DNA from: Trichoplax sp. H2
Taxonomy: Eukaryota
Assembly (NCBI GenBank): GCA_003344405.1
Contig: NOWV01000105.1
Location: 186,001-250,000 of the forward strand
Length of the DNA: 64,000 nucleotides
Direction: 5' to 3'
The position numbers and the translations under genes are program-made. This document shows, piece after piece, positions 3,595 to 60,320 of this stretch. How positions within the stretch are numbered: position 1 is the stretch's first letter; every line of letters starts with the position of its first letter. Below the pieces are notes generated by a model that ran no database searches, had not been told where the DNA came from, and saw only the letters and a program-made list of their open reading frames with translations.

Positions 3595-6500
3595 TGTAAT
3601 AATGTCAATACGCCTACGTAGGTTTATTTAATGAAGCGGTGTTTTCATTCTCGTAATTACAGTAGGCGATGTTTTGCCTCGGTTTACTTTCTATGTTCTG
3701 TAGACAACTGTGTTCAAAATTGTTCTGTAATTCTTAAAATGACACTATACTCATCTTTGTTCATAATGTTCGATGCCTGGGTCAGAATTAACATTTTTCT
3801 ATCGTACCATTCTATCACTATTGAGACTATAGCTAAAAGCTTTAGGACAAAAAGAAGCCTAAATTCTTTTCTGTAATACATCTATATAGAAATTCTACAT
3901 ATTTTTTGACTATAACTCATAAGTCCCTAACAGAAGCACTCTAATATTTAATCTAGTTCCATTTCATTGCAATATAAGTCGAATAACATGTCTTATGCTA
4001 TGAATCACGCTATTAAATAATGGGTGCCAATTCTGTATTTATGTAACTTTACTTTTATACCTAGTAGTATCAATGTAAAGTTAATAGAGCATATTTTGTG
4101 CATGTCTTTAAAGCTAATATAAATTCATATATTTTCAGTCAATTTTAATGATAAATAATCTAGCTTGGTCAATATTTATCATGCTAATGATAGGGCAATA
4201 GCTTAAGTTAATACTCGCATACATGATTTCATTAATAATTTCACGTATGTCAAATGTGATATTATTTACACTAATTGATTTTGTTCATACTATGATACGT
4301 GCATCGCATTAGGTTCCGATTAATTATCATAGATAATTGTTCCCTTTCATCTAATATAATATATAAAAATAGATTATGTACACAATGTCCAACACGTCGT
4401 ATTCTAATTAGCTCAATTAATCTGGCTCAGTTAGACCAGTAAGTTTAGAAAGGTGCGGTATATAATTTATGTTCTTCTAAAGGTATTCTTTATCGCTAAC
4501 ATTTATGGCGTGATATAATTACTGCAGGAAATAGTCGACAGTAAATTATAGCAATGATCTTACATATGTAATTCAACAGAAAAATGAAAGATTTGTACTA
4601 TTAATTAAAAGTAACAAACGGATGGAATTGCTAATTGCAATCGAGATATATAAAAGACTTGGACATAACACAATAAATTTCTCGTTGAAATTCATGATAC
4701 ATGTTATATTATATTATTAAGCTAAAAAAATTTTCTGAAAGTAGATCAAGGATTTTACTCCTGTAGGAGAATAGTGTAATTAATTGATGCTAAAGTGTTC
4801 GTATTTCTGGTAGAGAAATCTTCAGATGAAAAAACTGACGAGCGATCAAAATAGGATATTTTACAATATTGAACTGTCTTGATTCTTTAAAAATAAAAAT
4901 TGGAATATTTAATTTAGTTTCCCATTTAAAGTATCATCGGAGTATTTTAATATAGTAGATAGATATCTAGGATATCTTAAACATAAATGCTTGTGCAAAT
5001 ACAATAAAGAATACTATACATCACAAAATATCAGCGAGAAGGATAGGAGACAGACCGAATAAGTGATTCACGTAGATTTTACAATTTATTATTATGATAA
5101 TATCAGTATTTACATTAATCTATGACTGGTGTAAAAACACAATCACGTATCGGTATGAGTGCCTATTGAGGAATCAGATACTTAGTGAACTTGATTCTTT
5201 ACTATACACAAGTATGAATAATAATTTTTGGATTGATATGAAATAAACGGATATTAGGATTCCAATTCATTATAGAATAAACACTACTAGTGCGGATTCG
5301 TGTGTGTATATCTATGGAAGTATAGTTTTTACTCCATGTGAATATAATTTCCTATTCGTTCATATTACTCTCTTGAATGTTAGATTTTAATTTTTAAATC
5401 GTAAAGCTTTTTAAAATCAATTTAAGTAACTAGAGCCAGTATCAGACACTTATTTGACTTGAAATACGCATAATTTGACAGGCTCAGTAAATTGATCGTT
5501 AAGTTGACTCAACTATATAAGTGAGGTAGTTCTATATAGTTTAGGTTAAGAAGGAAAATAGTTCTTAAGTTCTAGCAAGCTGTAACACTTGTCATGATGG
5601 GATAATTACAGTAGCTTATTTTAAGAACTAGTGCATTTTTTGAAAAAAAAATTCTTTATAAAGATGGTGCCTTTCAATAAACAACGAAATAATATTCTCT
5701 CAAATGGTTCAACTCTAGTGTTTGTGAACAATAAGCTTTAAGAATTTCATGATCATTTTCATAAAATGACTGGGAAGTTGATCTAGTGATTTGTAAATAA
5801 CCTGAACAAATTATAAGCACTTTAGGAAAACAATGAATGTATTTCAACCATAAAGCATTTAATGTGCTATTATGCTTGATGTTATAATACATCTATTTAT
5901 TCACAATCTTTTCTGATAAATTAGATGATATTTTTATCTATATTTTATACAGTAGAAAATTGGTTTGTAGCTTAAATTATAATCCAGCAAGGTTGACGGA
6001 TGCTTTGCGCCGCTTCGATCATAATTCAAAACTTCAGTTATTGTTACGACAATTATAACACTTAAAACACTTATTACATAAATAGAGAGGAAATATTTAA
6101 GACGTACTAAGGCGACACCTTAAATTGTAATTATTATGCTAGTATTAGTAAAAGTAGATAAATTTGATCATGTAGTATGTAAGACATTGGTTAAATGAAA
6201 TGTACAATAATCTATGACAACGTATGCAACTTTTTCTCATAGTAAACTCCTATGATTCAGATTTCCAAATGTAGCTATTAGTTATGCCGTCGCTAATATT
6301 AAATTGCAGAAATGGAGAAAATTACTGAAAAATCACGAAAAATAATTAAAATATAAAAAATTGATGGATCAGCGAAGAAAACCTGCGTTGAATACTGTAT
6401 CAGATTTATTTAAGCCCTTGAAATTTCTATGGCACCATAGCTAATATTTGTAATTGGACTACATATCTATGAGTATTTTTGAATGGTCTCGTCGAAATTA

Positions 6501-9500
6501 GGGGAATTACGTAACTTTAGGTACTGATAAAGTAAACAAGGAGGGAAGAGTTTCCATAGTCTATTTTAAGATTTCTGAGAATTATTTAAATCAAAAAATG
6601 AATCTTGATTGAAATACTATTTGCTTGAAAGTTAAAATAAATTTTATACAATGATAGCTAAATTATAGATTTGCTACCGTATCTAATGAAATATTAATGG
6701 CACTAAGTGATGCTGTGAAATTGTTTCGATATTAATATTATTTTCGGTTTTACTAATGGTTTTAGCGATGTACAGGATCAATGAAAATATTTTTACACAA
6801 TGAATGGTTGTTGAATAGATACATATGTGGTAGCTGCATTACCTGCAAGATTGCATCCTTCATGTATATCGAAGATTGACATCAACTGTGAATAGCAATT
6901 GAAAGCAATTTTATCTAACTCACAAAGAGTAAAAAATTCGATAGATCTAGAATCCAGGTACGATATACAACCGTTTTACTGCGGTACAAACTGAGCCGTT
7001 TTATAAAGTTCATCTTTATCTTTTTAGATTATACGTTATTAATTAATTATACCCAAGACTTGTGAAATAATGAAGATAAAATAATAAAACATCTGTATTA
7101 ATTAAAAAGATTGAGATACAAGAAGAGAAATGGATAAGATGGACATGATATAAGAAATATAAGGTATTACAGTAAGTTTTGAATTTATATGCAAATAGAT
7201 GTCAATTAAATGATTGCAAGAGCTACAATTGAATTGCAAGTCTGCAATGTGCCTTACTTAAATTATACTTAGAATACTGCTTGCACTTGTAATCCTCTTG
7301 GTAGCACCATTGCCTTCTTATCTTCATTTATATACCTCAAACAGAAGCTTTACTGAGTCCTTAAGTTACTGACTACCTACTGTAGCTCAGAATAAATTAC
7401 AGATATACATAAAGCGCTTCCTGCTAATTTATTGTTTCAATTCAATCATTGTTTTTTAATCAACTATCTTGTCTCCTCTCTTCCCTTGATGGACGTTTCG
7501 TGTTCACATTATTGTTTTCATTGATGAAATTGAATTAAATGAGGATTAATTTTAATGGATGCAGTTTACTAATAGTGTTGATAGAGTAAGCCTGCTTGTT
7601 TGATGGATCTATATTGGCTACAAGGGGGTAATTCTTACGTAATCACACTTTCGTTCAAAAATTATAGCACTATTCCCAATCCAGGAATATTTTACTTCAA
7701 GACGAATCTATTAAACAATAGCAAAAGCTGATATTGCAATACAATCTGTACTTATGAATTTATGAAGGATCATGAGGATTCAGATATCATTTCATAATGT
7801 CTGATATACTAAGTGATTGCTTAAAGTTTTTTCCTAAGCAATTAGTGGGGGAATTTCAAAGGTAATCTGATCATAAATTGAAGGGCTTAATTTTATGACA
7901 TTTTATCGTTAAGAGGCACTAAATTTGTCGTGTCATTTTCATCGGATACATTGTCAATATACATTGCATAATTATTCCCATTTTGGAAACTGACAGACTT
8001 ATAAGTCTATTTGAATGCTACTGATTACAATATTAGATAATATTTAAGATTTAATCTGATATCTTTTAAAGCCCCTCCGATTAATGTAAGCAAATTAAAA
8101 AGAGCCTAGCAATATCGTAGAGTTAATGAAATACGATTGATTTTAACTATATCGATATTGCAATATTCTTGGCAATGCTATACCTATTAAAAAAGTTCAA
8201 TCATTGTATATCTAGCTAAACTTCCTCCTTACAATTCATAACCATTTTTTGGTTTTTGATAGGCCAAAATATATTCCTAAATATAGTGTCTGCGACTCAT
8301 TATGAATAATCGTGTAATTATCCTATGGTGCACCGTGAGTAGACTATAAAAGGAGTTGATGGCCAATGCTACGTAAAAATTGGAATTAAGGAAGGGTAAT
8401 CGTGTCTACTCGAGTGCTTTAGATAGAGTCGTAAAGCTAGTTTTAAATTTTGATTAATGCAGAATTTCAAACATTTATTAGACTATTTTTAATGTACATC
8501 CTATATTTAAGATGTTCGCGGATATGTTTTTTCTGATATGAACAGGATGCATTACATTCTCCTTTATAAGAAAGAACTACTAACTATAGAGTATCATCAA
8601 TATACCGTGACAAAATTCTCGTAATTGGAATCATTTCTAGACGTTGGGAATACTGTAAATGTTTAAATAAAAAAAATCAATTAAGTACTCCAAACGATTA
8701 CTACAATAGTAGTGTATGAACTTAACTTTACTAGCAAACAGAATACAGAAATCTTGATTAATTACTCAATATTGGCAATGAAATCTGAATATTTTTCTTT
8801 GAAGTAAGTATTTCTATAGTAATTCTTAGAAAATGCCTCCTTTAAAATAACAGTCAATGTGTTGCCAATTATTGCTTATAGAAGAAACTATGTTTTTTTC
8901 TTTGACGCCTTAGCTATGTATTCATAGTTGATGGCTATACGGTATACTCAACTTCCATCAACTGTTTACAGAACTTAGGAGAATTATTGTTAAACTCATC
9001 TCAAGGATTAATATTGCTCTTGAATGTGGTTCCTTTTTCTATCTCTGATTTGAAACTTTAAAATAGAATAAAAATGCTACACAGGCATAGAAATTATGTA
9101 GGGAATACTTTCTAATTGTCCTCTTTTACGATGACAATCACTCACTTAAAATTTGTGGTTACTAACATTGAGTAAATCTCTAGCGAGACACAATTAGACC
9201 AACACTGTGTTTAACCTTCATTCGATTTTAGTCAGTCAACTCATCAGGGTTGCAGTTAGTAGTTGCCAGTTACCGGCAATCATAAGTAATTATTATTGCT
9301 TGACAAGTCTGAGCACCATCTTGTGCGCTATTTGATTAGTTACGTTCAGTAGAGAGATCCATCATGATTTATATTCTCAGTTAGACCGTAATGTCAAATA
9401 ATATTCAACATCGTTTTGGATCATTACTTTGTCTCAAATAAAGGGTAGCCTAGGACTAACAGATATCGGTCAGGTATTGATCATTTGTGTAGAAGTAGTC

Positions 9501-24900: not shown

Positions 24901-25549
24901 GCCATTGATTTTTCGACAAGCGATAGCTGACGATAAGATAGGAGAATATTTCATTCCCAAAGGATCTATAATTACAATTATACCACCTTATAGGTACGGT
25001 AACTTTAACGTGGATACTATAACTAGTATTATAAATTGTTTTAGAAAGTAATGTCGATGTTGCAGCTACGCTCCTAACTTATACGTTCATAAATGTTCGA
25101 ATTTTCTATATTGTGCAATAATAATGAGATTAAAAAATAAGCGTAAAGATAGAAGTAGCCTTAACGCATACGAATAAATTGATATCTCGGTGAAAATATT
25201 ACAGTGCTTCAAGTTAATGTAATAGCAAGTTTGAAAATTTGAAACTGTTTATATTCAAACTATTTTTAGGTTTCCTAGTTATTTTCAAGAACCCTTAAAG
25301 TTTGATCCAGATAGATGGGATAACTCAGCAAAGAATACTAGTCCCTACGCTTATTTGCCATTTCTTAGAGGACCACGAACTTGTATTGGTTCGAAATTTG
25401 CTACAACCGAAATGAAATGCTTGCTGTCTCTACTATTAAATAATTTCTTGTTCAAACCTTATCCAAATCAAGCGGTTGAAAGAAAATACCAGTTTACAAT
25501 GAAACCAGATCCTGCTTTGAAACTTATCGTCTCACCGGTGTTGCTATGA
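21970..25549 (+). CDS. Cytochrome P450 paralog A, intact, 10 exons, about 492 aa
   Basis: Exons 21970-22083, 22596-22675, 23008-23148, 23286-23392, 23670-23901, 24054-24184, 24330-24445, 24564-24733, 24886-24993, 25270-25549 total 1479 nt in frame. N-terminal anchor, IPGP hinge, I-helix AGHETT, K-helix KESLR, FDPDRW, heme motif FLRGPRTCIG. Confidence 0.93.
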
Positions 25550-26548: not shown

Positions 26549-27661
26549 TCATTGACTTGCCAATTTTTGAACTAATTCATCTACATGTATCTTATCGTCG
26601 ACACTTGCTGCTCGATTAAGTATGACTTGCAATACACCAGGGATGGGTATTCTGTTATTGCTGTCGATGATATCAAACGTATTATCAATCATAGCTGATA
26701 ATCCACGAGAAGATTTGTCGCAATATAGATCATCTAGGGATCGATCATAGATGAATAGTAAAGTGTAAAAGTCCGTCAAGGCATCTGGTTTATTGTCCAA
26801 TTCACAATATCGTTTTGGATCTTTAAAGATTTCCTTATATTCATGAACTTGTGGACTAAGCTGCAAGTATGCAGTGTACGGTATATCAAAGCAAGACAGG
26901 CCTAAGTTGTCGCATAAATTCGTTACAGAAGTATGGACCGATAAATCAAGGCATTCTTTAGGCGTCGGAATTAATGATTTAGTTTTACCTGTAGCATAGT
27001 TGAATAACGAAACATGCGTATTCGGTTTAAGGCAACTGTGTGATAAAACTGCGATACCATCGCTTGATAGTAAATCAGAACAGATTTTATCTAGAAGTTC
27101 TTTAAAGCGAGCCTGATCATGATGCGATGATATAAAATAATAACCACAATGCAATAGATATACTAACTTAAAGTCTTTTATACGACGATCTCCAGCTTGT
27201 GAGCCAAGAAGTAATCTCGTAATATTACATTTCATAACATCCGCATGCAAGACACGATAGTTATTTAACGGAATTATTTTAGCTTGCATGGCCTTGTACA
27301 AATTATCTCCAGCTATTCCATTGGTAGAATTCAGTTTTTCGCAATCCTGTTTATGATCAATACTGTCGTTGTCAGTCAATCCAGTATAATCAGGGTTATT
27401 ATCGACAGCGATTAAATCGATACCGGATTGAAATTGGATATTTCGTAGATATTTTACAATTCTATCCCCAGCTCCACAGCAAATGTCAGCTACACGAATA
27501 GGATCGTCCTGATCACAATTTACTAATCCTTTCTCTTTTAAACCGTTGATTAAGGCTTGATGTAATAGGGCTTCTGTTTGTGGTTGATTACTTGCATTTA
27601 TAAAAGCGCTAAACGCTTTGCTGTATTCGAATACATGCGTTTTTATTGTTGTCTTTTCCAT
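26549..27661 (-). CDS. Intronless class I SAM-dependent methyltransferase, histamine N-methyltransferase-like, 370 aa
   Basis: Motif I IRVADICCGAGD; acidic post-I AVDNN; N-terminal YSKAFSAFINASNQ resembles the HNMT 'YxxsFxxFlxxS' helix; FKLVYLLHCGYYF followed by LLSSDGIAVL resembles the HNMT beta4/beta5 region. The family call is from recalled motifs only. Confidence 0.75.
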   Translation of the reverse strand: MEKTTIKTHVFEYSKAFSAFINASNQPQTEALLHQALINGLKEKGLVNCDQDDPIRVADICCGAGDRIVKYLRNIQFQSGIDLIAVDNNPDYTGLTDNDSIDHKQDCEKLNSTNGIAGDNLYKAMQAKIIPLNNYRVLHADVMKCNITRLLLGSQAGDRRIKDFKLVYLLHCGYYFISSHHDQARFKELLDKICSDLLSSDGIAVLSHSCLKPNTHVSLFNYATGKTKSLIPTPKECLDLSVHTSVTNLCDNLGLSCFDIPYTAYLQLSPQVHEYKEIFKDPKRYCELDNKPDALTDFYTLLFIYDRSLDDLYCDKSSRGLSAMIDNTFDIIDSNNRIPIPGVLQVILNRAASVDDKIHVDELVQKLASQ

Positions 27662-28840
27662 CCAGTATAAGGTACTTTCTTCTCCAGAACTTTTACTCTT
27701 TGTCAGTCAGATGTGGGAAAATTCGAAAACTGGCGTATTCTATTGGATAGACTACTCAATTCAAATTAAATGAATAATATTATTTTACACAGCATTGCTC
27801 TCTACCAGTAGTGACGAATCTCACGATTGTGGTAGTGGCGTTGGGTTGATACCTCGCGGAATACCGTAATCCAAGCAGACTCGCTCGCTTAACAGCACAG
27901 TACTGTAGACAATACTGAACGCGAATAACTTCGATGGCAAGATAGCGTGGAAAGTTGCAATTTGTTACCACTCCGATTCAAAATCGATACTTTGGGCTTG
28001 ATTTAGCCTCAACAGTACACAGCTATTCGAAAATTGAAAGTTGCAATTTGTTACCACTCCGATTCAAAATCGATACTTTGGGCTTGATTTAGCCTCAACA
28101 GTACACAGCTTATTTTCCTTAGTGCCACCCAAGTTCATCGCGATGTACTGTATACTACTGAGTCTAGATCGTAACGGTTCGATCCGAACCGAACCGAACC
28201 TTCTCAGGTCTAGACTACTGACCACGGCAAATACTGTACAGTAAGTATACTGTACTGTACCAGTGTGCAGTTCTGGATTTGGGTCTGGATCACACAACGG
28301 AAAGAGAGTGCGTAGTTACTCGCAGACGGGAACGTGCTTCCGCTGTAGAAAATGTCTTGCTGCCATCCACTTAGGCTAAGTCTATGTTCATATTGCTATA
28401 CGGTATGGGGCCAGAAAGTGAATGAATACCTTTATTGTACTGTACTAATCGATGGTTTGTTGTTTGCTTGCAGAATGAAAATAAAATAAAGTCTTATTTG
28501 CACTAACAGTACTCATTGCAGATGCAATATTGGAGTTGCCCACTATACACGCTTGCTACCCAATCGTATTCTTAGCGATCAGGCATGAGTAATTACTATA
28601 CTGTAGAATTGGCAACTTGAACGAGGGCTATTGCGCACGCTCTTTCCTTCCGTTCCCGATTTGACTCCATGCTTACTTCGACAAGCTTTCCCATGGACAG
28701 TACTCAGTACTGTAAAGTACCGTACTGTACTGTAAACTGTACACTGTACAAGCGGTCCATGCGATTGCGTCACTCCTTGGCTTGACTTTGAAAATATTGG
28801 CAATGGCAAAACAACGCTGGAATTCAATCATTTTGATGTT
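27662..28840. promoter_or_regulatory. Putative divergent promoter region between the methyltransferase and P450 paralog B
   Basis: Head-to-head start codons at 27661 (-) and 28841 (+); visibly more GC/CpG-rich than flanks; dense TACTGTA/CAGTAC motifs. Confidence 0.45.
27950..28110. repeat. 75-bp identical direct repeat (27950-28024, 28036-28110)
   Basis: gaaagttgcaatttgttaccactccgattcaaaatcgatactttgggcttgatttagcctcaacagtacacagct occurs twice with an 11-bp spacer. Confidence 0.92.
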
Positions 28841-31800: not shown

Positions 31801-32552
31801 AGACTACAAATTTACATATTGCATGATCTATAAATACCTAAAAATTAATAATATGTATACGTAATATGTTGGAAAGGAGATTTATATTCTGAGACTATGG
31901 CTTTAAATCTTTATTATCATCTGTGTTTGATCCATAGGTTATATCCACCAGTACCAATGACTTTTCGACAGGCAATAGCTGACGATAAGATAGGAGAATA
32001 TTTTATCCCGAAAGGAACTATGATTGCAATTATACCACCTTATAGGTAACTTAAAGATATCTTCGACAGGGCATTATGACATAGTTATTGATTTAGCCTA
32101 TAAAAGTTTCATAAATCATTTATTCTTTTATCGCTTTTCTGACTTTTATGTTTTAAAATAAGTCTACATTGAAGAATTAAATAACTTTACAAATTGACGT
32201 TGTAAATATTATTTCAAGTGGATTTAGCAGTTTTAAACAGATCAATATTTATTTTCATTTATGATATAGGAATCCAAAGTATTATGATGAACCCTTACAG
32301 TTTGAACCAGACAGATGGAACAATTCAGCTAAGAATGCCAGTCCTTATGTATATTTACCGTTTCTTAGGGGGCCTCGAATTTGCATTGGCTCAAAATTTG
32401 CAACAACGGAAATAAAGTGCATCCTGTCTTCACTATTAAAGAATTTCTCTTTTCAACCTTATCCAGACCAACCAGTTGAAAGGAAGTTACAAGTTACGAT
32501 GAGGCCTCATCCATCCTTGAAACTTATTGTTTCATCGTTGTTACCTTCATAA
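28841..32552 (+). pseudogene. Cytochrome P450 paralog B, complete 10-exon structure with one in-frame TAA (28934-28936) in exon 1
   Basis: Exons 28841-28951, 29328-29407, 29722-29862, 29961-30067, 30682-30913, 31093-31223, 31353-31471, 31617-31786, 31938-32045, 32270-32552. Motifs AGHETIS, KESLR, FEPDRW, FLRGPRICIG. Codon 32 is TAA where paralog A has TTA. Confidence 0.8.
30249..30277 (-). mobile_element. Possible Helitron-type 3' terminus within P450-B intron 4
   Basis: Minus strand reads cccaggccgaagccctaaatatacCTAG|T: a short GC hairpin about 10 nt before CTAG-T. This intron (614 nt) is over twice the length of the homologous introns in paralogs A and C. Confidence 0.3.
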
Positions 32553-34449: not shown

Positions 34450-37400
34450 TCAAGGTGACACTGGTGAAACGATAAGTTTCAAAGGCGGATATGGCCGCAT
34501 TGTAATATGCAACTTTCTCTCAATCTGTTGGTTAGGATAAGGTTGGAAAGAAAAATTACTTAATAATAACGATAAGATACACTTCATTTCCGTTAGTGCA
34601 AATTTAGAGCCGATGCAAATTCGCGGCCCTCTAAGAAATGGCATGTATGCGTATGGACTGGTATTCTTGGCTGAGTTATCCCATCTATCCGGATTAAACT
34701 TTAAAGGTTCTTCAAAGTACTTTGAACTCCTAAATATAATATTCATGGTAGCAAAGAAATTTTTTAGTAACAGCCATGCTTTCAACATGTAGACAATTAT
34801 AGTTTTGACATTTACCATCATTCAATTTGTAATATGCACGAAGATATTTATTTCAATATAAGCTTCGAATACAATGATAAAATAAAATTACATGAAGTTC
34901 TTTCACGTGCAAGAATAACTTGCTTTAAGCTCGCTTTACTCTTGCTACGCTTGAGTTACCTATGAGGAGCTAAAATTGCAATTGTAGTTCCTTTGGGGAT
35001 AAAATATTTTCCTAACTTATCATCTGCTGTCGCTTCTCGAAAGGTCAGTGGCGCAGGTGGATATAGTCTAAAAATCAAATATAGATAGTTACTTAGAGAG
35101 TAAAAAGTACATAGAAGAAATAAGGAATTACTCAAAAGACTTTATTGTCAAAATATTAGCAATCAAAGACCGCTCAATAAACAATTTGTAGATATTGTTA
35201 TAGCAGATTAATAACCTAAGGGACTCTTTAATAACGTTCTCAAGGAACGGTAATTCGTCGAAAGTACTCCATGTTATATTATCACTTGGTTGTATAACCT
35301 TACAAATTTCTTTACGCACTTTCTCTTGAAGTTCAGGGTTGCTAGCCAATGCATATAATGTCCAAGTTAATGCCACACTTGTAGTCTAGAACAGATATCA
35401 TATTTATTATATTATAAAACTTTAAGGAACTCTCGTTAAGTAAAAGACTCCATAGCTCATTTTTTCAATTTAATAACGGCAGTATAATTGTATACTTCAT
35501 AAATTGTAATCTTACGTTAAGCGACAGTCCTAACCTCATGACCAGCAGCCATAAAAGTCATAATTTGATCCTGTAATTCTTTACCAGTAAAGCTAGGATT
35601 ATTTTCTTCATCTTTTAGCGAGAGTAAAATATCTAGCAAGCATTTTTCTTCATCTACAACAATATTTAACCATTTTTTAATAGTATTTATCTAAAATTAT
35701 TAAACAATCATTATAATACTAACGTTTTAATATAATATTCAATTTCAGATTAAAATAATAAAATAGTTTGCATACCAATAGGCCCCTTCTCTAATTTTTG
35801 GTTAATTACTTTCTTGACAGTACTATGACAAATAGATAAAGCACGACTTCTTTCTCTATTGCTAGATGTAGGTAAATATTTAAAGCCTGGTACCAAATAT
35901 GTCCAACTAAAGAGTTTAAAATTAAAAATTGCTAGGTATTTAATGAACTTATTACTAAAATATGTGTAATACACGATACGTAAGGTAAATACAAATGCAA
36001 ATACATTACGAGACCAACATTTTAGCAGACAATTTCTTCTTCAATTATTATTATGATATAATTTTCCAAGATACGCTTATCAAATACTTACTTTAAAGTA
36101 AGGCCTCCAATAATCTTCCTGAAGGCAACCGATACCTGATTGTTCTCATTTGTTAATGAATTACAATCGTAATCAAATGCACATTTGCATATGATATCTA
36201 GGGTGATTCGAGCAAAGTCTTGATGTACATTCAACGTAGCTTTTTGGTCACCGCGCTCGTCGATTTCATTTTGCCAGTAATTTACCAAGAGTTGGGCAAA
36301 ATTTTGAAATACTGGTGCCATCTCTGGTGTAACAAACAGAAAATTAGCCGATGCGATCTATTACAGGTAAGGAGATATTACACATGAGATAAGATGTAGA
36401 ATAGTATATTTCTATACGTTACTCAAATCTAATGTAATATGCAGCTACTGTCCAATTTAAGATTTTGAAATGAATAATATATTTTAGACATCTTTAACTC
36501 GCAATGACTAAGAGATAGCATCGAGTTGGTTTGCTGTTAAGTATCTACCCTAAAATAGATATTTTACCTTTAATTTTATTATATTTAAATGTTGGATTAA
36601 TGATTTTCCGAACTTTAGCATGCTTTTGCCCTTCAAGCAAAAGCAATCCTTCACCAATAAGATCTCCTAAGAAACTGAAATGAAATCCTGAGAGTTATCA
36701 CTATACTATCATGCTATTTTAATTTTGTATGATAATTTCTAAGCTGAATAAAAGACAAGATGCCGACAACAAGCATACAAAGTTATAACTTACGCCTTGG
36801 TGCGTAAAGGTTTACGATATTTAGTACACTGCGTCACCAGGACATGCTTGATATACTCTGGATCAGTAATGGCGACCCGTTGGGAATAAATCGGAAAGCA
36901 GTAACGAACGATGCCCCCGTGTTGTTCGCTCCATCTACAAGTAAGATAAAAGAGAAAAGCTAATTTCAGCAAGTATTTAGTACTAGAGAGAAACGAAGCA
37001 ACTACTTATTCTCATTCACAAATTTACGAAATTAGCATAAGACTCTTTGGATGTAGCTTGTATAGTAGACTAAACATTAACTTTACAATCATCTATGATT
37101 TTATAGAAGGATTGATAAATATATTTCTTGACAAAGGGAAATTGATGATGATATTCATAGGATATTATCTCAAGTAAGTAGAATAGATGTTGAGGTCACG
37201 TAAAAATACGATGTACACAAACTTGTATCTTGTTTTATATTTAGAAACTGTTGAATACTAACTGTAAATAAGGATCGCCAGGTGGTTCTTTCATAATAAT
37301 GAGTAAATGCCCCAATGGCGACCATGTTGGTAGTCCAGGAATCTAAAACGATGATTTACGAGTTTATCATATCAACAAACGAGGTAAACGACTATCAATT

Positions 37401-53879: not shown

Positions 53880-54922
53880 CCAATGTATCCATCGACATCA
53901 AGTAGTTATCTGACACTTTGACGTGCATACGAGTCGTATTGCAAGTTGACTCAATTCAATCAGACAGTGAACTGCAGTAGTATAGAGTATTTCCCGAAGT
54001 CAAGTTTATAATTGGGTAAATATCAAGTTACAACTCAAATGTCAAGTTAAGGTTTAACACCTTGGATTGTAAGAGCTATTATATATTTACTAGCTATGGC
54101 AGCCTAAATCGATAGATCAATGTATACTTCTACACGTTACTGCGCTTACGTTGCTGACACAACTGCATACAAGTACGCTAATGCTAGACTATCCAATATT
54201 CAAGTTAAAAGATACACTTCAAAATTAAACAAATACTACTACAGTAAAGAGTACATCGAAGCACCATGACTTCTATTAATTTGTTATTACGCAGAAATTA
54301 CGGACATAAGGCAAATGAATCATATTTTTAAATTACAATAGCTGTTTCTGCTTCTTAGTTAGCGGCTTTATACAATACTATGCCATTCTTGTTATAAAAA
54401 ATCAAATGAAGTTAAATTTCGAACTATTTATACATCATGTAATACTTCAACATTTCACGTCTAATGGCGATAAAACTGCAACATAGAAAATATAGCCATT
54501 CTAGTTTATTGATTATTGTAAGCAAGCCAACAAGAAATTAAATTAGGACTATCGATCAATTAAAAATTTTTTAATTTTTAGTATTTAATTGACATTTTTA
54601 ATACTATAGTATAACGCTGTGTAAAACTGACAACCATCTATAAAATTAAGAATGTTAATCCAAATTACTATTAGTTTGCTGGGAAGTTTAAAGTCTACTT
54701 GTAAAATTATCGTAAGCTGAAAAGTAAATAAGCTTGTATTGTATTCCCTGTTTTTGAAGGGTTATCTGTTAGGATAGTTAAATTAATTTAGAAGAGTAAT
54801 TTAAGAAGGTAAAGGCATTCTATAATAATTTTGTCTTGGCGCATATTTTATAAGTTCAATTTAAATGTACGATAAATTATAAGCTGTATTGAAGATGGCT
54901 TTGAGGATAGGCTGTTTGCACT

Positions 54923-57900
54923 CTAGAAATTTTGTTCGTTGTTTTCTGACAGAATGATGTCATTCCTACCAATAGTTTGCAAAGCCCGCTGCAATCGGCT
55001 AATGCTAACATTGGGATGTGCCTTTTTGTACCAGTAATTGAGCAATTCCATTGCCTGGTTAAAGACATGGTCGCGATTTTGTTCCATTATAACCTTAACA
55101 CAAATCGTTGGATCTAGGATGGCCGCTAACTGTGGCCAGTCTGTGCCAATAGAGCTTGCAATAGGGTAAAAATACTTCCTAGGATCTACATAGTACAAGT
55201 AGAAACTTTACTATGAAGTACTATACGAGTATGTTGTAACAATTTCAATTGCAAATAAATTACTTGATTTTACATGATATAAAGTACAATATTTACATAA
55301 TGAGCTCTTATGTCGCAATTAGAGTTGAATAATCATCTGGTTCGCTATAATTATTTATGTAATGGTAATAATGGCATTAGCGATAGCACAGGTGGAACTG
55401 TACTTCTATTGTAAGACTAATAGAAATAAATGGCTCTAATTCGAATTTGAATAACTCTGTAAACGAACTACTTACTGGACAAACAATGTACAAATAAATT
55501 AAGATTGAATATTTTTTAATTCATAAATCATTATTTATTATGTCAAGTAGCTTACTAGTAGCTAGAATATTCTAATGACGATCTTAAAAATTCGTCAGTG
55601 ATATCATTATCTAGTAAAACTGTATGCGATCATATCATCAGTGGCAAACGTAGCTTAAAGAATTACATCCATTGACGAGGTAAGGTATTCCTATGTTAGA
55701 ATTTACAAGGAGTAATTGCTCTTAATCATATTTGAATCGATCTACAATTGGATTACTAAATGCAATTGAGAATGATTGATAGATATCAATTCAATAGAGG
55801 TTTACCTTCATCTTTGGTATCTTTCCATCGGTCTAAAGTAGTGGAATAAAAATAGCAATAATCGATTAATAGTTCTATCGTTTAAGTAATCAATGCAGTA
55901 GATTAGTGCCCATAATTTTTGATAATAATCAACTATTGTTTACGCTATTACAAAATCACCTTACATTAAATAGTAAAATAGCTATGATACAGTACATTTA
56001 TGTCTCTTTGCTTGCTCTAGCGTATGACTTTAGTTTATTATATCATAAAAAGTGATAATATAAGAATGAAGCTGCTGTTTATTCTCACATGCTTACCTAT
56101 CAAGAATTTTTCATTATAAATAATCCAATCGTTTAAAGATTGACTGGCAAATTCCATCTTACAATGCTTACATCGAATCCAATTTTGATCTTCTTCCTTG
56201 TATTCTTCAGTTATACTTGTTTGTGTATTACATTCACTACATTTGACGAAATATCGACAATCGGCCCCTTTAAACTTAACCATCCTATCATTGACAGTAG
56301 AGATGAGTTTATTCTTGACAATTTCGTGTGGCCGTTTGACAAATATAGAATTTGTAACTTTATCGATAATCGATTGACTCCTCTCGGGCTCATTTATTTT
56401 CTGATAGCAATATTGTAAACCAATATGAGATTCCTCTTTCTTGACTACAAGATAATGATTGTCATTTGCTAAATAATATTTGGCACATTGATAGTATAAT
56501 TCTACGTCCGTATTATTCCATTCCTTTAAACATGAAGATAACAAGCAATAATAAATTCCATCTGGAAGATATGGAATATCTGTATGCTCGTATCCGATGT
56601 AGAGCCAATCTGATTGATGATATTTTGATAAATCAAATGGCTTAACATCATATCGTAACAAATATGGAACAAAGTATTGACATTCTTCGCCGTTGTCGTT
56701 CTTCTCATTTGTAATTGAACATAGAATATCATAAGCATGCATGAGTGCCAATATAGTTTGCTTACTATTGTCATCTAAATTAAATTTATAAATAGCATGA
56801 TCAATGTATGATCTTGATAATTTTCCTCTTTGGCTTGCTATCTCATAGTCACGTTTTATCTGTGCACCTCCTTGTACAAAATCTTGTAATTGAATAATAG
56901 AACGAAATATATTTAATAACCAATCGACATTAGTTATAATAATTCCGTCGTCGCCTACTTTATCACAGTAGATGACTTCTCCTAAATCGTGTAGATACAT
57001 TAGCATAGCGATTAATTCATCATGGTTTTCATATAATCCGTATTGTTGAGACAAGTTTACTATTTGTTGCATTGTCATAATATTATGCACTTGAGAATGT
57101 CTAATTTGATTGATAATAGAAGATGCGGGTTGATTGTTACTGTTAGTAGGGAGCGATTTATTTAATATTCTAGCCATGATATACCATCGAATAGGTATAG
57201 GATTCGTAATAAATGGCAGCGATTGTACAAATGCCTTAATGATACCATGTAAACGAAGACAACATTGTCGACGCTGCTCTAGTGTCGACGGAGTACTATC
57301 AAGAGGATTGCAATTAAAAATAATACCAGAAGAATAGATATGATTGGCATAAGAAGGCATGCGAGACGTCAATGTAGACACAAATTGATTGAATCGAGTA
57401 CGTCCATTTTCTTCATTGATAATACAATCGCCATGAGAAGCTACTAAAATAATAATAGGTAATGAATGCTGTGAAGGTGGTAAATGCTGTTCATCTTCAC
57501 TTTTAATGTTGACATTGATGGTACTTTGGCTTGTATGGCCAGCTATGATTGATGTAAGCCATTCTTGCATAGCTTGTAAATACGTCGTTTTGAGTAATTG
57601 GTTGTTCCTTGTTGTTACCTTGTCGTTAATGTCTTGATTAATATTAAATACTAAAATATAAATACTATTGACGGAGATAAAGGGATAATGAGTAAGATGA
57701 TAGACGGCATGACCTGCGAAATCCCATATTTTAACATACTGATTGTTTTCGTCTTTGTCTGCATTTTGATTTTCTATTGGATCTATGTCGGTTACTTGCT
57801 GACTGATGTTATCTTGACTATTGATACTTGTTTGGGCTAACTGTTGTATGACTGTCTTGACTTTATCGTCTAGTATTTCAGTCCAATCACAACCCTCTAA

Positions 57901-60320
57901 GTTACGAATATTATAATATTCGGTCTCTACCATAATATCCAAATTCTCAGCCACTTGTGTCGGAGATGGATTGTCTAGTGGTTGCTTGGTAAATATTTTT
58001 CGAACAGAAGTTTTGCCCACATTGCGAGGACCAATGAACATGCCTCGTATTAAATGATTAAAGCAATGACCATGTTTTAATGCTTTGCTATATGCATTGT
58101 AATATTTCTTTTCTTGCAAAGCTGTAGAACAACAAAATACAGAATAGGGTTACGGTTATCCATCGCTCTCTCGTCTACTACTGTATTAAAACTCCAATTA
58201 CCTTTCTCTTGTACGTGTTGATTGTTATGACTGCCGTCAATAGTATTTGCTGGCGCTGTAACGTTGTTGATTTGATTCGGTTGAAACCGTTCAACGGTAC
58301 TTTTGATCCAATTTCTCGCTGTTGATGTCGACGATTTCGGCTTCCGGAGAGTGATATCGATATTCTTTTTGGTCCATTTAACTAGGCGATCATTTCCGCT
58401 TAAGGTTGCGATATACAGTGACTTCTTAAAGTTATCCACAGCCTGATCGTACTTGCCTTGGCGACGATAGACAAGTCCTATGTTGTTATATGACTTCGCA
58501 ACGTGGGGATGATTGTGACCAAGGACTGACAATCGAATTTGCAGTGATTTGTCATACATATCCACAGCCTGATCGTACTTGCCTTGGCTTTTATAGACAT
58601 TGCCTATGTTGTTATATGAGTTGGCAACATCAGGATGATTATGACCAAGGACTGACAATCGAATTTGCAGTGATTTGTCATACATATCCACAGCCTGATC
58701 GTACTTGCCATGGTGACGATAGACAACTCCTATGTCGTTATATGAGTTGGCAACATCAGGATGATTATAATCAAGGACAGCCAATCCAATTTGCAGTGAC
58801 TTGTGATACATATCCACAGCCTGATCGTACTTGCCTTGGCTTTTATAGACATTGCCTATGTTGTTATATGAGTTGGCAACATCAGGATGATTGTGACCAA
58901 GAACTGACAATCGAATTTGCAGAGATTTGTCATAAATATCCACAGCCTGATCGTACTTGCCTTGGTCATCATAGACAAGTCCTATGTTGTTATATGAGTT
59001 GGCAACATCAGGATGATTATGACCAAGGACAGCCAATCCAATTTGCAGTGATTTGTCATACATATCCACAGCCTGATCGTACTTGCCTTGGCTTTTATAG
59101 ACATTGCCTATTTTGTTATATGAGCTGGCAACATCAGGATGATTGTGACCATGGACTGCCAATCCAATTTGCAGTGATTTGTCATACATATCCACAGCCT
59201 GATCGTACTTGCGTTGGCTTTTATAGACATTGCCTATGTTTTTATATGACTTCACAACATCAGGATGATTGTGACCAAGGACTGACAATCCAATTTGTAG
59301 TGACTTGTCATACATATCCACAGCCTGATCGTACTTGCCTTGGTCATGATAAACAAGTCCTATGTTGTAATATGAGTTGGCAACATGGGGATGATTGTGA
59401 CCAAGGACTGCCAATCCAATTTGCAGTGACTTGTGCAACATATCCACAGCCTGATCGTACTTGCCTTGGTGACGATAGATAACTCCTATGTTGTTATATG
59501 AATTGGCAACATCAGGATGATTGTGACCAAGAACTGCCAATCGAATTTGCAGCGACTTGTCATACATATCCACAGCCTGATCGTACTTGCACAAGCGATC
59601 ATAGACAACTCCTATGTTATTGTATGACCACGCAACATCGGGATGATTATGACCTAGGACTGACAATCGAATTTGCAGCGACTTATCATACATATCCATA
59701 GCCTGATCGATCTTGGCTTGGTCATGATAGACAATTCCTATGTTGTTATATGACTTCGCAACATGGGGATGATTGTGACCAAGAACTGACAATCCAATTT
59801 GCAGTGACTTGTTATGCATATCCACAGCCTGTTCGTACTTGCACAAGTCCCAGTAGACGCACCCAATTTGATGATAACTATCGGCAAGACGAGCATCCTT
59901 TTCGTCTAACCATTTTAATTTCATTTCCAACGATTTCTTACCGTCTTCCAGTGCTCCGTTGAAATCCCCTTGGCGTCTCTTAATCTCGCTTTCTCTTTGT
60001 AAACATTGAGCCATGCTCACTTCATCTTGCAGTTTAGTAGCCACAGTTTGTCCCTTATCACTCCATTCAACAGCTTCCTTGAATTGATATTGTAAAGTGT
60101 AAATGTCACAAAGACCAAGATAAATATCACATGCAAGTCGATCAATATCCGCACTAGGATTCGACAACGAAGCAATCGCATCGACAGCTTGTGTATAACA
60201 AGATAGTCCGTCCACCAACTGGAAGGCAGTCTTGCATGAGATGCCCTTTTCGTACAGTGATTGTATACGGGTATGGTGAGGAAGCACACTCGTAGAACAG
60301 ACAGATTCATCATCAGCCAT
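54923..60320 (-). CDS. TPR-repeat ROCO protein: TPR array, Roc GTPase, COR, CxxC..CxxC, Death domain (about 1480 aa)
   Basis: Exon 60320-58202 joins exon 58121-56097 in frame across an 80-nt GT-AG intron (EK|ALQEKKYY). Roc motifs: P-loop GPRNVGKTS, G3 IWDFAG, G4 VASHGD. COR: PIPIRW, LHDLGEVIY, WLLNIF. CSEC..CKHC. Probable phase-1 microexons 56016-55996 and 55832-55806. Terminal exon 55185-54923 is a Death domain (IGTDWPQLAAIL..QAMELLNYW..LQRALQTIGRNDI). Confidence 0.85.
58410..59885 (-). repeat. Intragenic tandem array of 126-bp (42-aa) TPR units, 11 complete plus 1 partial
   Basis: Consensus ANSYNNIGxVYxxQGKYDQAVDMYDKSLQI(G/R)L(A/S)VLGHNHP(D/H)V; unit starts are exactly 126 nt apart, from 59885 to 58499. 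Confidence 0.97.

Follow-up and report, generated by a model that had tools for sequence, protein, structure and literature searches.

The stretch of DNA analyzed here, the 'window', comprises 64,000 nt of Trichoplax sp. H2 (NOWV01000105.1, 186,001–250,000), and all coordinates are positions within it unless another locus is named. On its minus strand lies a four-exon gene for a protein of 1477 aa, without internal stops. Our model of this gene is identical to the deposited protein RDD40336.1 (Trichoplax sp. H2), whose database name, 'Nephrocystin-3', is a label driven by its TPRs. The gene and its parts are these:

58202..60320, minus strand: exon 1, with the start codon, a 145-aa helical N-terminus, 12 TPR units and a polar linker (open reading frame, donor at 58201, RNA joint, model match)
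58410..59885, minus strand: twelve 42-aa (126-nt) TPR-like units in a single exon, variable at helix-A positions 2, 5, 6, 9, 12 and 13 (TRF, Pfam, AlphaFold)
58500..58625, minus strand: unit 11 of this array, its clearest mosaic, with a unit-9 head (first 10 informative sites) and a unit-10 tail (last 7)
58122..58201, minus strand: intron 1, 80 nt, GT-AG (splice signals and RNA joint)
56097..58121, minus strand: exon 2, Roc GTPase and COR (Pfam Roc E 1e-10, COR-A E 4.8e-11; motifs)
55806..55832, minus strand: exon 3, a 27-nt micro-exon (joint 55832/56097 in RNA run X19; match to RDD40336.1)
54923..55185, minus strand: exon 4, the C-terminal death domain and stop (Pfam Death E 3.8e-10; model match)

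RNA evidence was taken from four of the 24 listed runs (X2, X3, X13 and X19). Run X19 has joints at 58121/58202 and 55832/56097, with CT..AC ends, that correspond to introns 1 and 2, and its loose ends, at 55806 and 55191, are compatible with intron 3; an allele or close paralogue of the window gene may be the source of the X19 contigs. Over 54921–57906 all four show full-depth differences from the window at several sites (~1–2%), and they therefore represent other alleles or paralogues rather than the exact window haplotype. Contigs from all four carry extra sequence at 57773–57774, where the related loci L001–L004 have an in-frame stretch of ~165 nt (55 aa) that the window Roc lacks. One joint in run X3 skips 1156 nt of the array; this is not a multiple of 126, may stem from a paralogue, and was set aside. 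Among the pieces listed for run X2, a 159-nt contig covers unit 2 with one difference.

Pfam places COR directly after Roc in exon 2, which is how ROCO proteins are recognized, and the Roc motifs are intact: the P-loop GxxxxGKT at residue 737, and a DxxG-type G3 at residue 839. No NACHT or NB-ARC ATPase turns up in this exon, where Pfam finds only Roc and COR-A. The domains run TPR-Roc-COR-Death, and not, as in NLRs, from an N-terminal effector to C-terminal repeats. With no STAND domain and with its domains in the reverse order, the protein belongs with the ROCO proteins rather than the NLRs. The original prediction dealt with the array. That array is real, but its setting in a Roc-COR-Death gene, and the young subfamily to which this gene belongs, went unmentioned.

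Elsewhere in the window lie the last exons of three cytochrome P450 genes, similar to one another and alternating in strand (25235–25549, 32265–32552 and 34450–34821, the first confirmed by Pfam), an intronless rhodopsin-family GPCR on the minus strand (1686–2807; Pfam 7tm_1), and an intronless 385-aa ORF, also on the minus strand (26549–27706), that has no Pfam match. A DICCGAG stretch in this last ORF resembles what we take to be a SAM-binding methyltransferase motif.

The first unit of the array begins at 59885, and the units follow one another with a period of 126 nt (TRF: 11.2 copies, 86% matches, no indels); unit 12 holds the repeat pattern until about codon 30, at 58410. All 12 units are distinct, the frame is open throughout, and the window is free of N. 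Pfam recognizes TPR_10 in 12 stretches and TPR_12 with an E value of 1e-212, and Pfam, AlphaFold and alignment concur in a 42-residue helix-pair unit in the TPR consensus register. AlphaFold renders the array as a regular helix-pair solenoid (mean pLDDT 84.8, pTM 0.63), for which Foldseek returned generic TPR solenoids. The units had been called near-identical in DNA. They are similar, but this was an overstatement: units 2–11 average 86.8% DNA identity (81–95%) and 80% pairwise protein identity. Mean identity to the majority residue is 87.1%, and by this measure, rather than by T-REKS, the array lies above the fungal-HIC threshold, which asks for 85% identity or more across 100 aa or more.

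The residues previously listed for the variable positions proved exact. Position 2 reads DKWNNKSNNNNK across the units and position 9 reads CIVVLNNLNVNL; the di-residues at 12–13 are, from unit 1 to unit 12, WD, HD, DR, RH, HD, KS, KS, DD, KS, RH, KS and RR. The helix-A modules also recur in the non-adjacent units named: NVYKS in 6, 7, 9 and 11; YRH in 4 and 10; and VYHD in 2 and 5. The assertion that variation concentrates at positions 2, 5–6, 9 and 12–13 stands in part. These six positions of the 42 are enriched, holding 169 of the 373 pairwise amino-acid differences among units 2–11 (permutation p=2e-5, with the choice of positions partly post hoc for this array), but 5 and 6 vary by singletons only, and 15, 31 and 33 vary more.

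The register of the units was fixed by alignment to consensus TPRs in their usual numbering; the unit numbering used here matches the canonical register, as the description of these six positions as ligand contacts had supposed. Positions 2, 5, 6, 9, 12 and 13 of TPRs are the concave-face ligand contacts according to Magliery and Regan (PMC1261162), and variability of this groove is a general trait of TPRs (PMC1261162). Unit positions 2–13 fall on helix A; the groove assignment comes from the literature register, and the helix-A placement from the DSSP string of the AlphaFold model rather than from model coordinates.

The window gene has many relatives. A Roc query finds at least 91 matches in the genome (G000), and an N-terminal DNA query matches six of 16 places, the window included, at 95% or more. 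The young copies—the window, L001, L002, L003, L004 and L021—have N-termini that are 94–98% identical (pS 0.055). The Roc-COR of the window is 96–97.5% identical to those of the four copies compared with it, with pS 0.04–0.07 and pN/pS 0.46–0.71. The published allelic SNP rate for Trichoplax is ~1% (PMC6057997), and because their divergence lies above this, the six copies are likely paralogues. Their unit numbers differ widely, from 12 in the window to 8 in L001, 5 in L002, 7 in L003, 10+6 in L004 and 8 in L021, though their flanks differ by a pS of just 0.04–0.07; the L003 copy is frameshifted.

L004 is peculiar over 1–1090 and 4240–6990. Its 10- and 6-unit arrays lie on either side of a 20-N gap, and two death-exon copies, 98.6% identical, are likewise parted by such a gap; one N-terminus and one Roc exon bound the two arrays and the gap that they flank. 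The 77 nt that follow the two arrays are identical to each other and differ by 7–9 from those of the four other copies compared, and six of the 11 differences between the arrays' last units fall in codons 5, 9, 12 and 13. Either the two arrays are alleles of each other or one of them arose by very recent tandem duplication, and L004 is possibly both haplotypes scaffolded in tandem.

Older Roco loci hold arrays of another sort: 12 arrays in 11 loci, degenerate, with 45–71% internal identity. High unit similarity is therefore a trait of the young clade. One older TPR-Roc-COR-Death paralogue, with six degenerate units, lies just past the window (L015; contig C58 of G000, 250001–260000), where a further COR runs off the contig end; the young copies, too, are often at contig ends. 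At least three death-domain types occur among close paralogues (window and L004; L002; L003), which fits a modular output. The exons concerned (window 54923–55185, L002 762–1080, L003 583–907, L005 7861–8191) differ in death type despite Roc-COR identities of 96–97%. Of nine stretches scanned, only the window and L002 showed the 27-nt micro-exon motif. No close copy from outside H2 was found among proteins of 410–1308 aa (best 120 listed of 8000 candidates scored), nor by protein searches at 685–2181 aa and 30–409 aa, and a metagenome scan for the array pattern gave 39 pattern matches, none of them confirmed.

Recombination among the units was assessed with our own PHI code, four-gamete pairs, triplets and clonal simulations, which stood in for GARD and GENECONV, and it bears out the proposal that the window units have a mosaic history: PHI, the simulations and the four-gamete pairs agree. 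In the window array, some 61% of informative site pairs are incompatible. With all sites included, PHI yields p=1e-4 at k=2 and 3; when each codon contributes a single site, p is 0.013–0.014 (0.24 at k=5), and it is 0.013–0.13 when the groove codons are removed. When clonal evolution was simulated under clustered or gamma rates, the PHI p fell to 0.002 or below in 0/600 runs, and the observed level of incompatibility was reached in 4/600. Among synonymous sites of the array, 15 of 28 pairs show all four gametes, with Rm=7. The NVYKS units 6, 7, 9 and 11 share a silent GGC at codon 8, and their downstream silent markers assort freely; that the silent GGC travels with NVYKS points to descent, not convergence. 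This head with its GGC is present in four units of the window gene and in 0/31 units of other genes. The unit-11 triplet has p=5.7e-4 (Bonferroni 0.41), and no triplet passes Bonferroni, in 720 or in 39270 tests. The longest identical tract in the array is 87 nt, between units 8–9 and 10–11; units 10 and 11 share 68 nt.

For 25 units from outside the window, PHI is significant with the groove codons, and p is 0.42–0.83 without them. Units are about as distant within genes as between them (pS 0.144 vs 0.148), so homogenization within genes is weak, and they are ~2.6 times further apart than the N-termini of the same young copies. It seems likely, because the within- and between-gene distances are alike and both ~2.6 times the N-terminal one, that the pool of units predates the duplications, and that units were then re-dealt and mutated within each gene. 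The nearest neighbour of 26 of the 41 units is in another gene, which shared ancestry can explain, and gene labels cluster weakly on the unit tree (23 changes vs a shuffled mean of 26.8; 6/200 as low).

Three other sources of the pattern were considered. Recent transfer of units between genes gains no support: no identical unit is shared, and the closest pair, 3/126 nt apart, is as divergent as the flanks. Exon shuffling is excluded by the confinement of all 12 units to one open exon. Adenine-directed mutagenesis of the DGR kind came to mind on account of the constancy of third positions in groove codons, but is rejected, as third-position A sites vary least (synonymous mean minor frequency: A 0.024, G 0.101, T 0.045, C 0.038). 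No reverse transcriptase was found in the five of 13 other long window ORFs scanned against Pfam.

Selection was measured with a two-class codon model of our own (groove vs non-groove) in place of PAML, on the internal units: 41 of 56, the first and last unit of seven arrays and one frameshifted unit being left out. For the window array alone, the ML model gives a groove omega of 1.5–2.2 with p 0.07–0.17. All 41 units give a groove omega of 3.1 (2dL 42.9, p 6e-11); an out-of-sample set of 31 units from the other young genes gives 4.4 (p 8e-13). When the tree is derived solely from helix A, the value is 4.5. Sites 2, 9, 12 and 13 are the strongest; 5 is modest, and 6 is weak. A groove dN/dS above 1 is thus supported once the paralogues are added, but is borderline for the window array by itself: concave-face positive selection is a property of the subfamily. 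Helix-B positions 17, 21, 22 and 31 are likewise above 1, as are 21, 22 and 31 in the other genes, and non-groove omega reaches 0.86 there; constraint is therefore loose, and change is not limited to the groove. Nor are the units drawn from a small alphabet of modules, as the original prediction had it: there are 16 di-residues, and 40 distinct six-residue groove signatures among the 41 units. The recognition code suggested along with that alphabet is, in the TALE or PPR sense of one repeat for one ligand, at most conjecture.

Across the young subfamily, the repeats are mosaic and their grooves have changed to excess, and we describe this evolutionary pattern with considerable confidence. What it serves is a further question. 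By analogy with NLRs, our favored reading—to which we would give a probability of roughly 0.6—is that the window protein acts as a diversifying intracellular sensor of non-self, in which Roc would be the GTPase switch and the death domain would signal. Unequal crossover or conversion, in frame and within the single exon, would re-pair helix-A heads with helix-B tails, and would spread new heads, such as NVYKS, by the same means. Since units of 126 nt stay in phase with the codons, exchanges of this sort would leave the frame intact while remodelling the concave face, and selection would then favor new groove residues. Roco proteins switch by changes of nucleotide and dimer state. If the analogy with NLRs and with Roco biochemistry holds, a bound ligand might shift the nucleotide and dimer state of Roc-COR, and the shifted state might cluster death domains and recruit adaptors.

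The driver might instead lie within the animal: young paralogues could be diverging onto different endogenous partners, or the genes could match self against non-self between clones, with microbes playing no part. We think this improbable, though it is the best of the alternatives. The nearest solved natural relatives by sequence are the TPRs of kinesin light chain, which bind host cargo, and the different death-domain types of the close paralogues would suit such roles. Fungal het genes with repeats of this kind, moreover, serve in allorecognition (PMC13449251). Set against endogenous partners, 40 distinct groove signatures in 41 units suggest more turnover than a few fixed partners would need, and birth-and-death with broken copies suits an open-ended set of targets.

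Less probable still is neutral turnover, by which exposed helix-A sites would merely tolerate change in redundant duplicates, and an omega above 1 would be an artefact of short, recombining units. It draws on the non-groove omega of 0.59 (all 41 units) to 0.86 (other genes), on the Roc-COR pN/pS of 0.46–0.71, on the failure of the window array alone to reach significance by ML, and on the general variability of TPR grooves (PMC1261162). Against it, when units were simulated with omega=1 and four freely recombining segments (divergence 0.113, vs 0.136 observed), the maximum omega was 2.23 and the maximum 2dL 17.4, and none of the 123 simulations reached the observed values of 2.9 and 34.3 (from an earlier set of 35 units). 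A count of groove steps that needs no tree agrees with selection: 33 nonsynonymous and five synonymous steps in the 41 units, a rate ratio of 2.1 (p=0.002), with ratios of 2.0 for the window (p 0.026) and 2.6 for the other genes (p 0.0003). Control arrays speak the same way. From 13 stretches that hold long arrays of 42-aa TPRs, we tested the six with internal identity of at least 78%, whose contigs are not among the Roc matches (the ORF check was done for L026 alone). Groove omega in these non-Roco arrays is near 1, at 0.91–1.37, and significant in 0/6, although in some of them an individual site (2, 12 or 31) is conspicuous.

These long arrays make up a second family (L026 3529–7365 on contig C708 of G000, L027–L035, L037 and L038), with 25–32 units, 64–88% internal DNA identity, and recurring helix-A modules such as AVYSN, EAYRH and AVYLD. 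That of L026 is a single 1278-aa ORF with no Roc ORF within 9.9 kb.

Least credible is that the order of the window mosaic is partly an assembly chimera, made where the assembly switched haplotypes or wrongly joined repeats of 87% identity and close paralogues: published Trichoplax assemblies are indeed unphased consensus sequences with ~1% SNPs (PMC6057997), L004 sequence is duplicated across N gaps, and four runs differ from the window at full depth while no listed piece spans the array, but the window has no N, its frame stays open over 12 units, each of them distinct, the longest identical tract inside the array is just 87 nt, and selection and incompatibility are seen in other young genes too.

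The 42-residue TPR-like repeats as a class (Pfam TPR_10; kinesin light chain; PDB 4y6w, 7ai4) share their unit length and fold with the window array. In kinesin light chain, by contrast, the repeats have diverged from one another but are conserved between species. Nearer in behavior are the repeats of fungal NLRs, which evolve under the same regime of selection and recombination (Dyrka et al. 2014, PMC4986451). Fungal HIC NLRs, such as the NB-ARC/TPR protein Pa_2_10340 of Podospora (PMC4986451, PMC13449251), have kinesin-light-chain-like TPRs of high internal identity, as the window array does, and share with the window subfamily concave-face selection, changes in repeat number, and the combination of repeats, NTPase and effector. 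They differ in their switch, which is a STAND ATPase rather than a Roc-COR GTPase, and in domain order: in the window gene the repeats are N-terminal and the effector C-terminal, and the host is an animal. The evidence differs in kind as well. For the fungal genes it includes identical units in different genes and polymorphism between isolates, whereas for the window subfamily it consists of paralogues with 5–12 units in one H2 genome. HIC NLRs occur in animals, too (Ament-Velasquez and Saupe 2026, PMC13449251).

Brown algae offer a second parallel. The Rocos of Ectocarpus have shuffled, positively selected N-terminal repeats, like those of the window subfamily, and are proposed immune receptors (PMC3341825), and the brown-algal NB-ARC family has TPR units of 42 aa, as in the window array (PMC3341825, PMC11378527). 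The algal genes hold one repeat per exon, and the Rocos among them have LRRs (PMC3341825, PMC11378527); the window gene, in contrast, has its 12 TPRs in one exon, with recombination cuts inside units, and a death domain after the TPRs.

Placozoan Rocos with TPR and death domains have been listed before (Civiero et al. 2014, PMC4104024), and the window gene belongs to that same Trichoplax ROCO expansion of Roc-COR proteins with TPR and death domains. The TPR-Roc-COR-Death architecture was thus already known, as was the regime itself, from fungal NLRs and brown-algal Rocos. The accessible text of PMC4104024 gives domain lists and suggests chemotaxis or phagocytosis; repeat similarity, mosaicism and selection are not described in it. 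A search of the literature that took in few subscription papers brought up nothing on selection or mosaicism in the TPR-Roco arrays of placozoans, nor any account of a selected repeat-shuffling regime in an animal Roco; the supplements of PMC6057997 and PMC6321704 could list the genes. According to Kamm et al. 2019, Trichoplax has no LRR-bearing NLR, cGAS-STING or RIG-I, and its TPR/WD40 NLRs are unlikely pathogen sensors (PMC6321704). The word 'Roc' is absent from the main text of this survey of placozoan immunity, as available (PMC6321704).

With a TPR groove that bears the marks of an arms race, this death-domain Roco subfamily is a tangible candidate for the intracellular sensor that Trichoplax seemed to lack, and would extend to an animal Roco the repeat-shuffling regime of fungi and brown algae. 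Tentatively, and with a good deal less assurance than for the window protein, one can go further and imagine a placozoan family of hypervariable receptors built on a Roco GTPase, in which TPR arrays recombine under selection, their lengths differ between haplotypes and possibly between clonal individuals, and death domains are exchanged. If such a family exists, it would parallel, in an animal, the machinery by which fungi diversify their NLRs, with another switch and the opposite order of domains.
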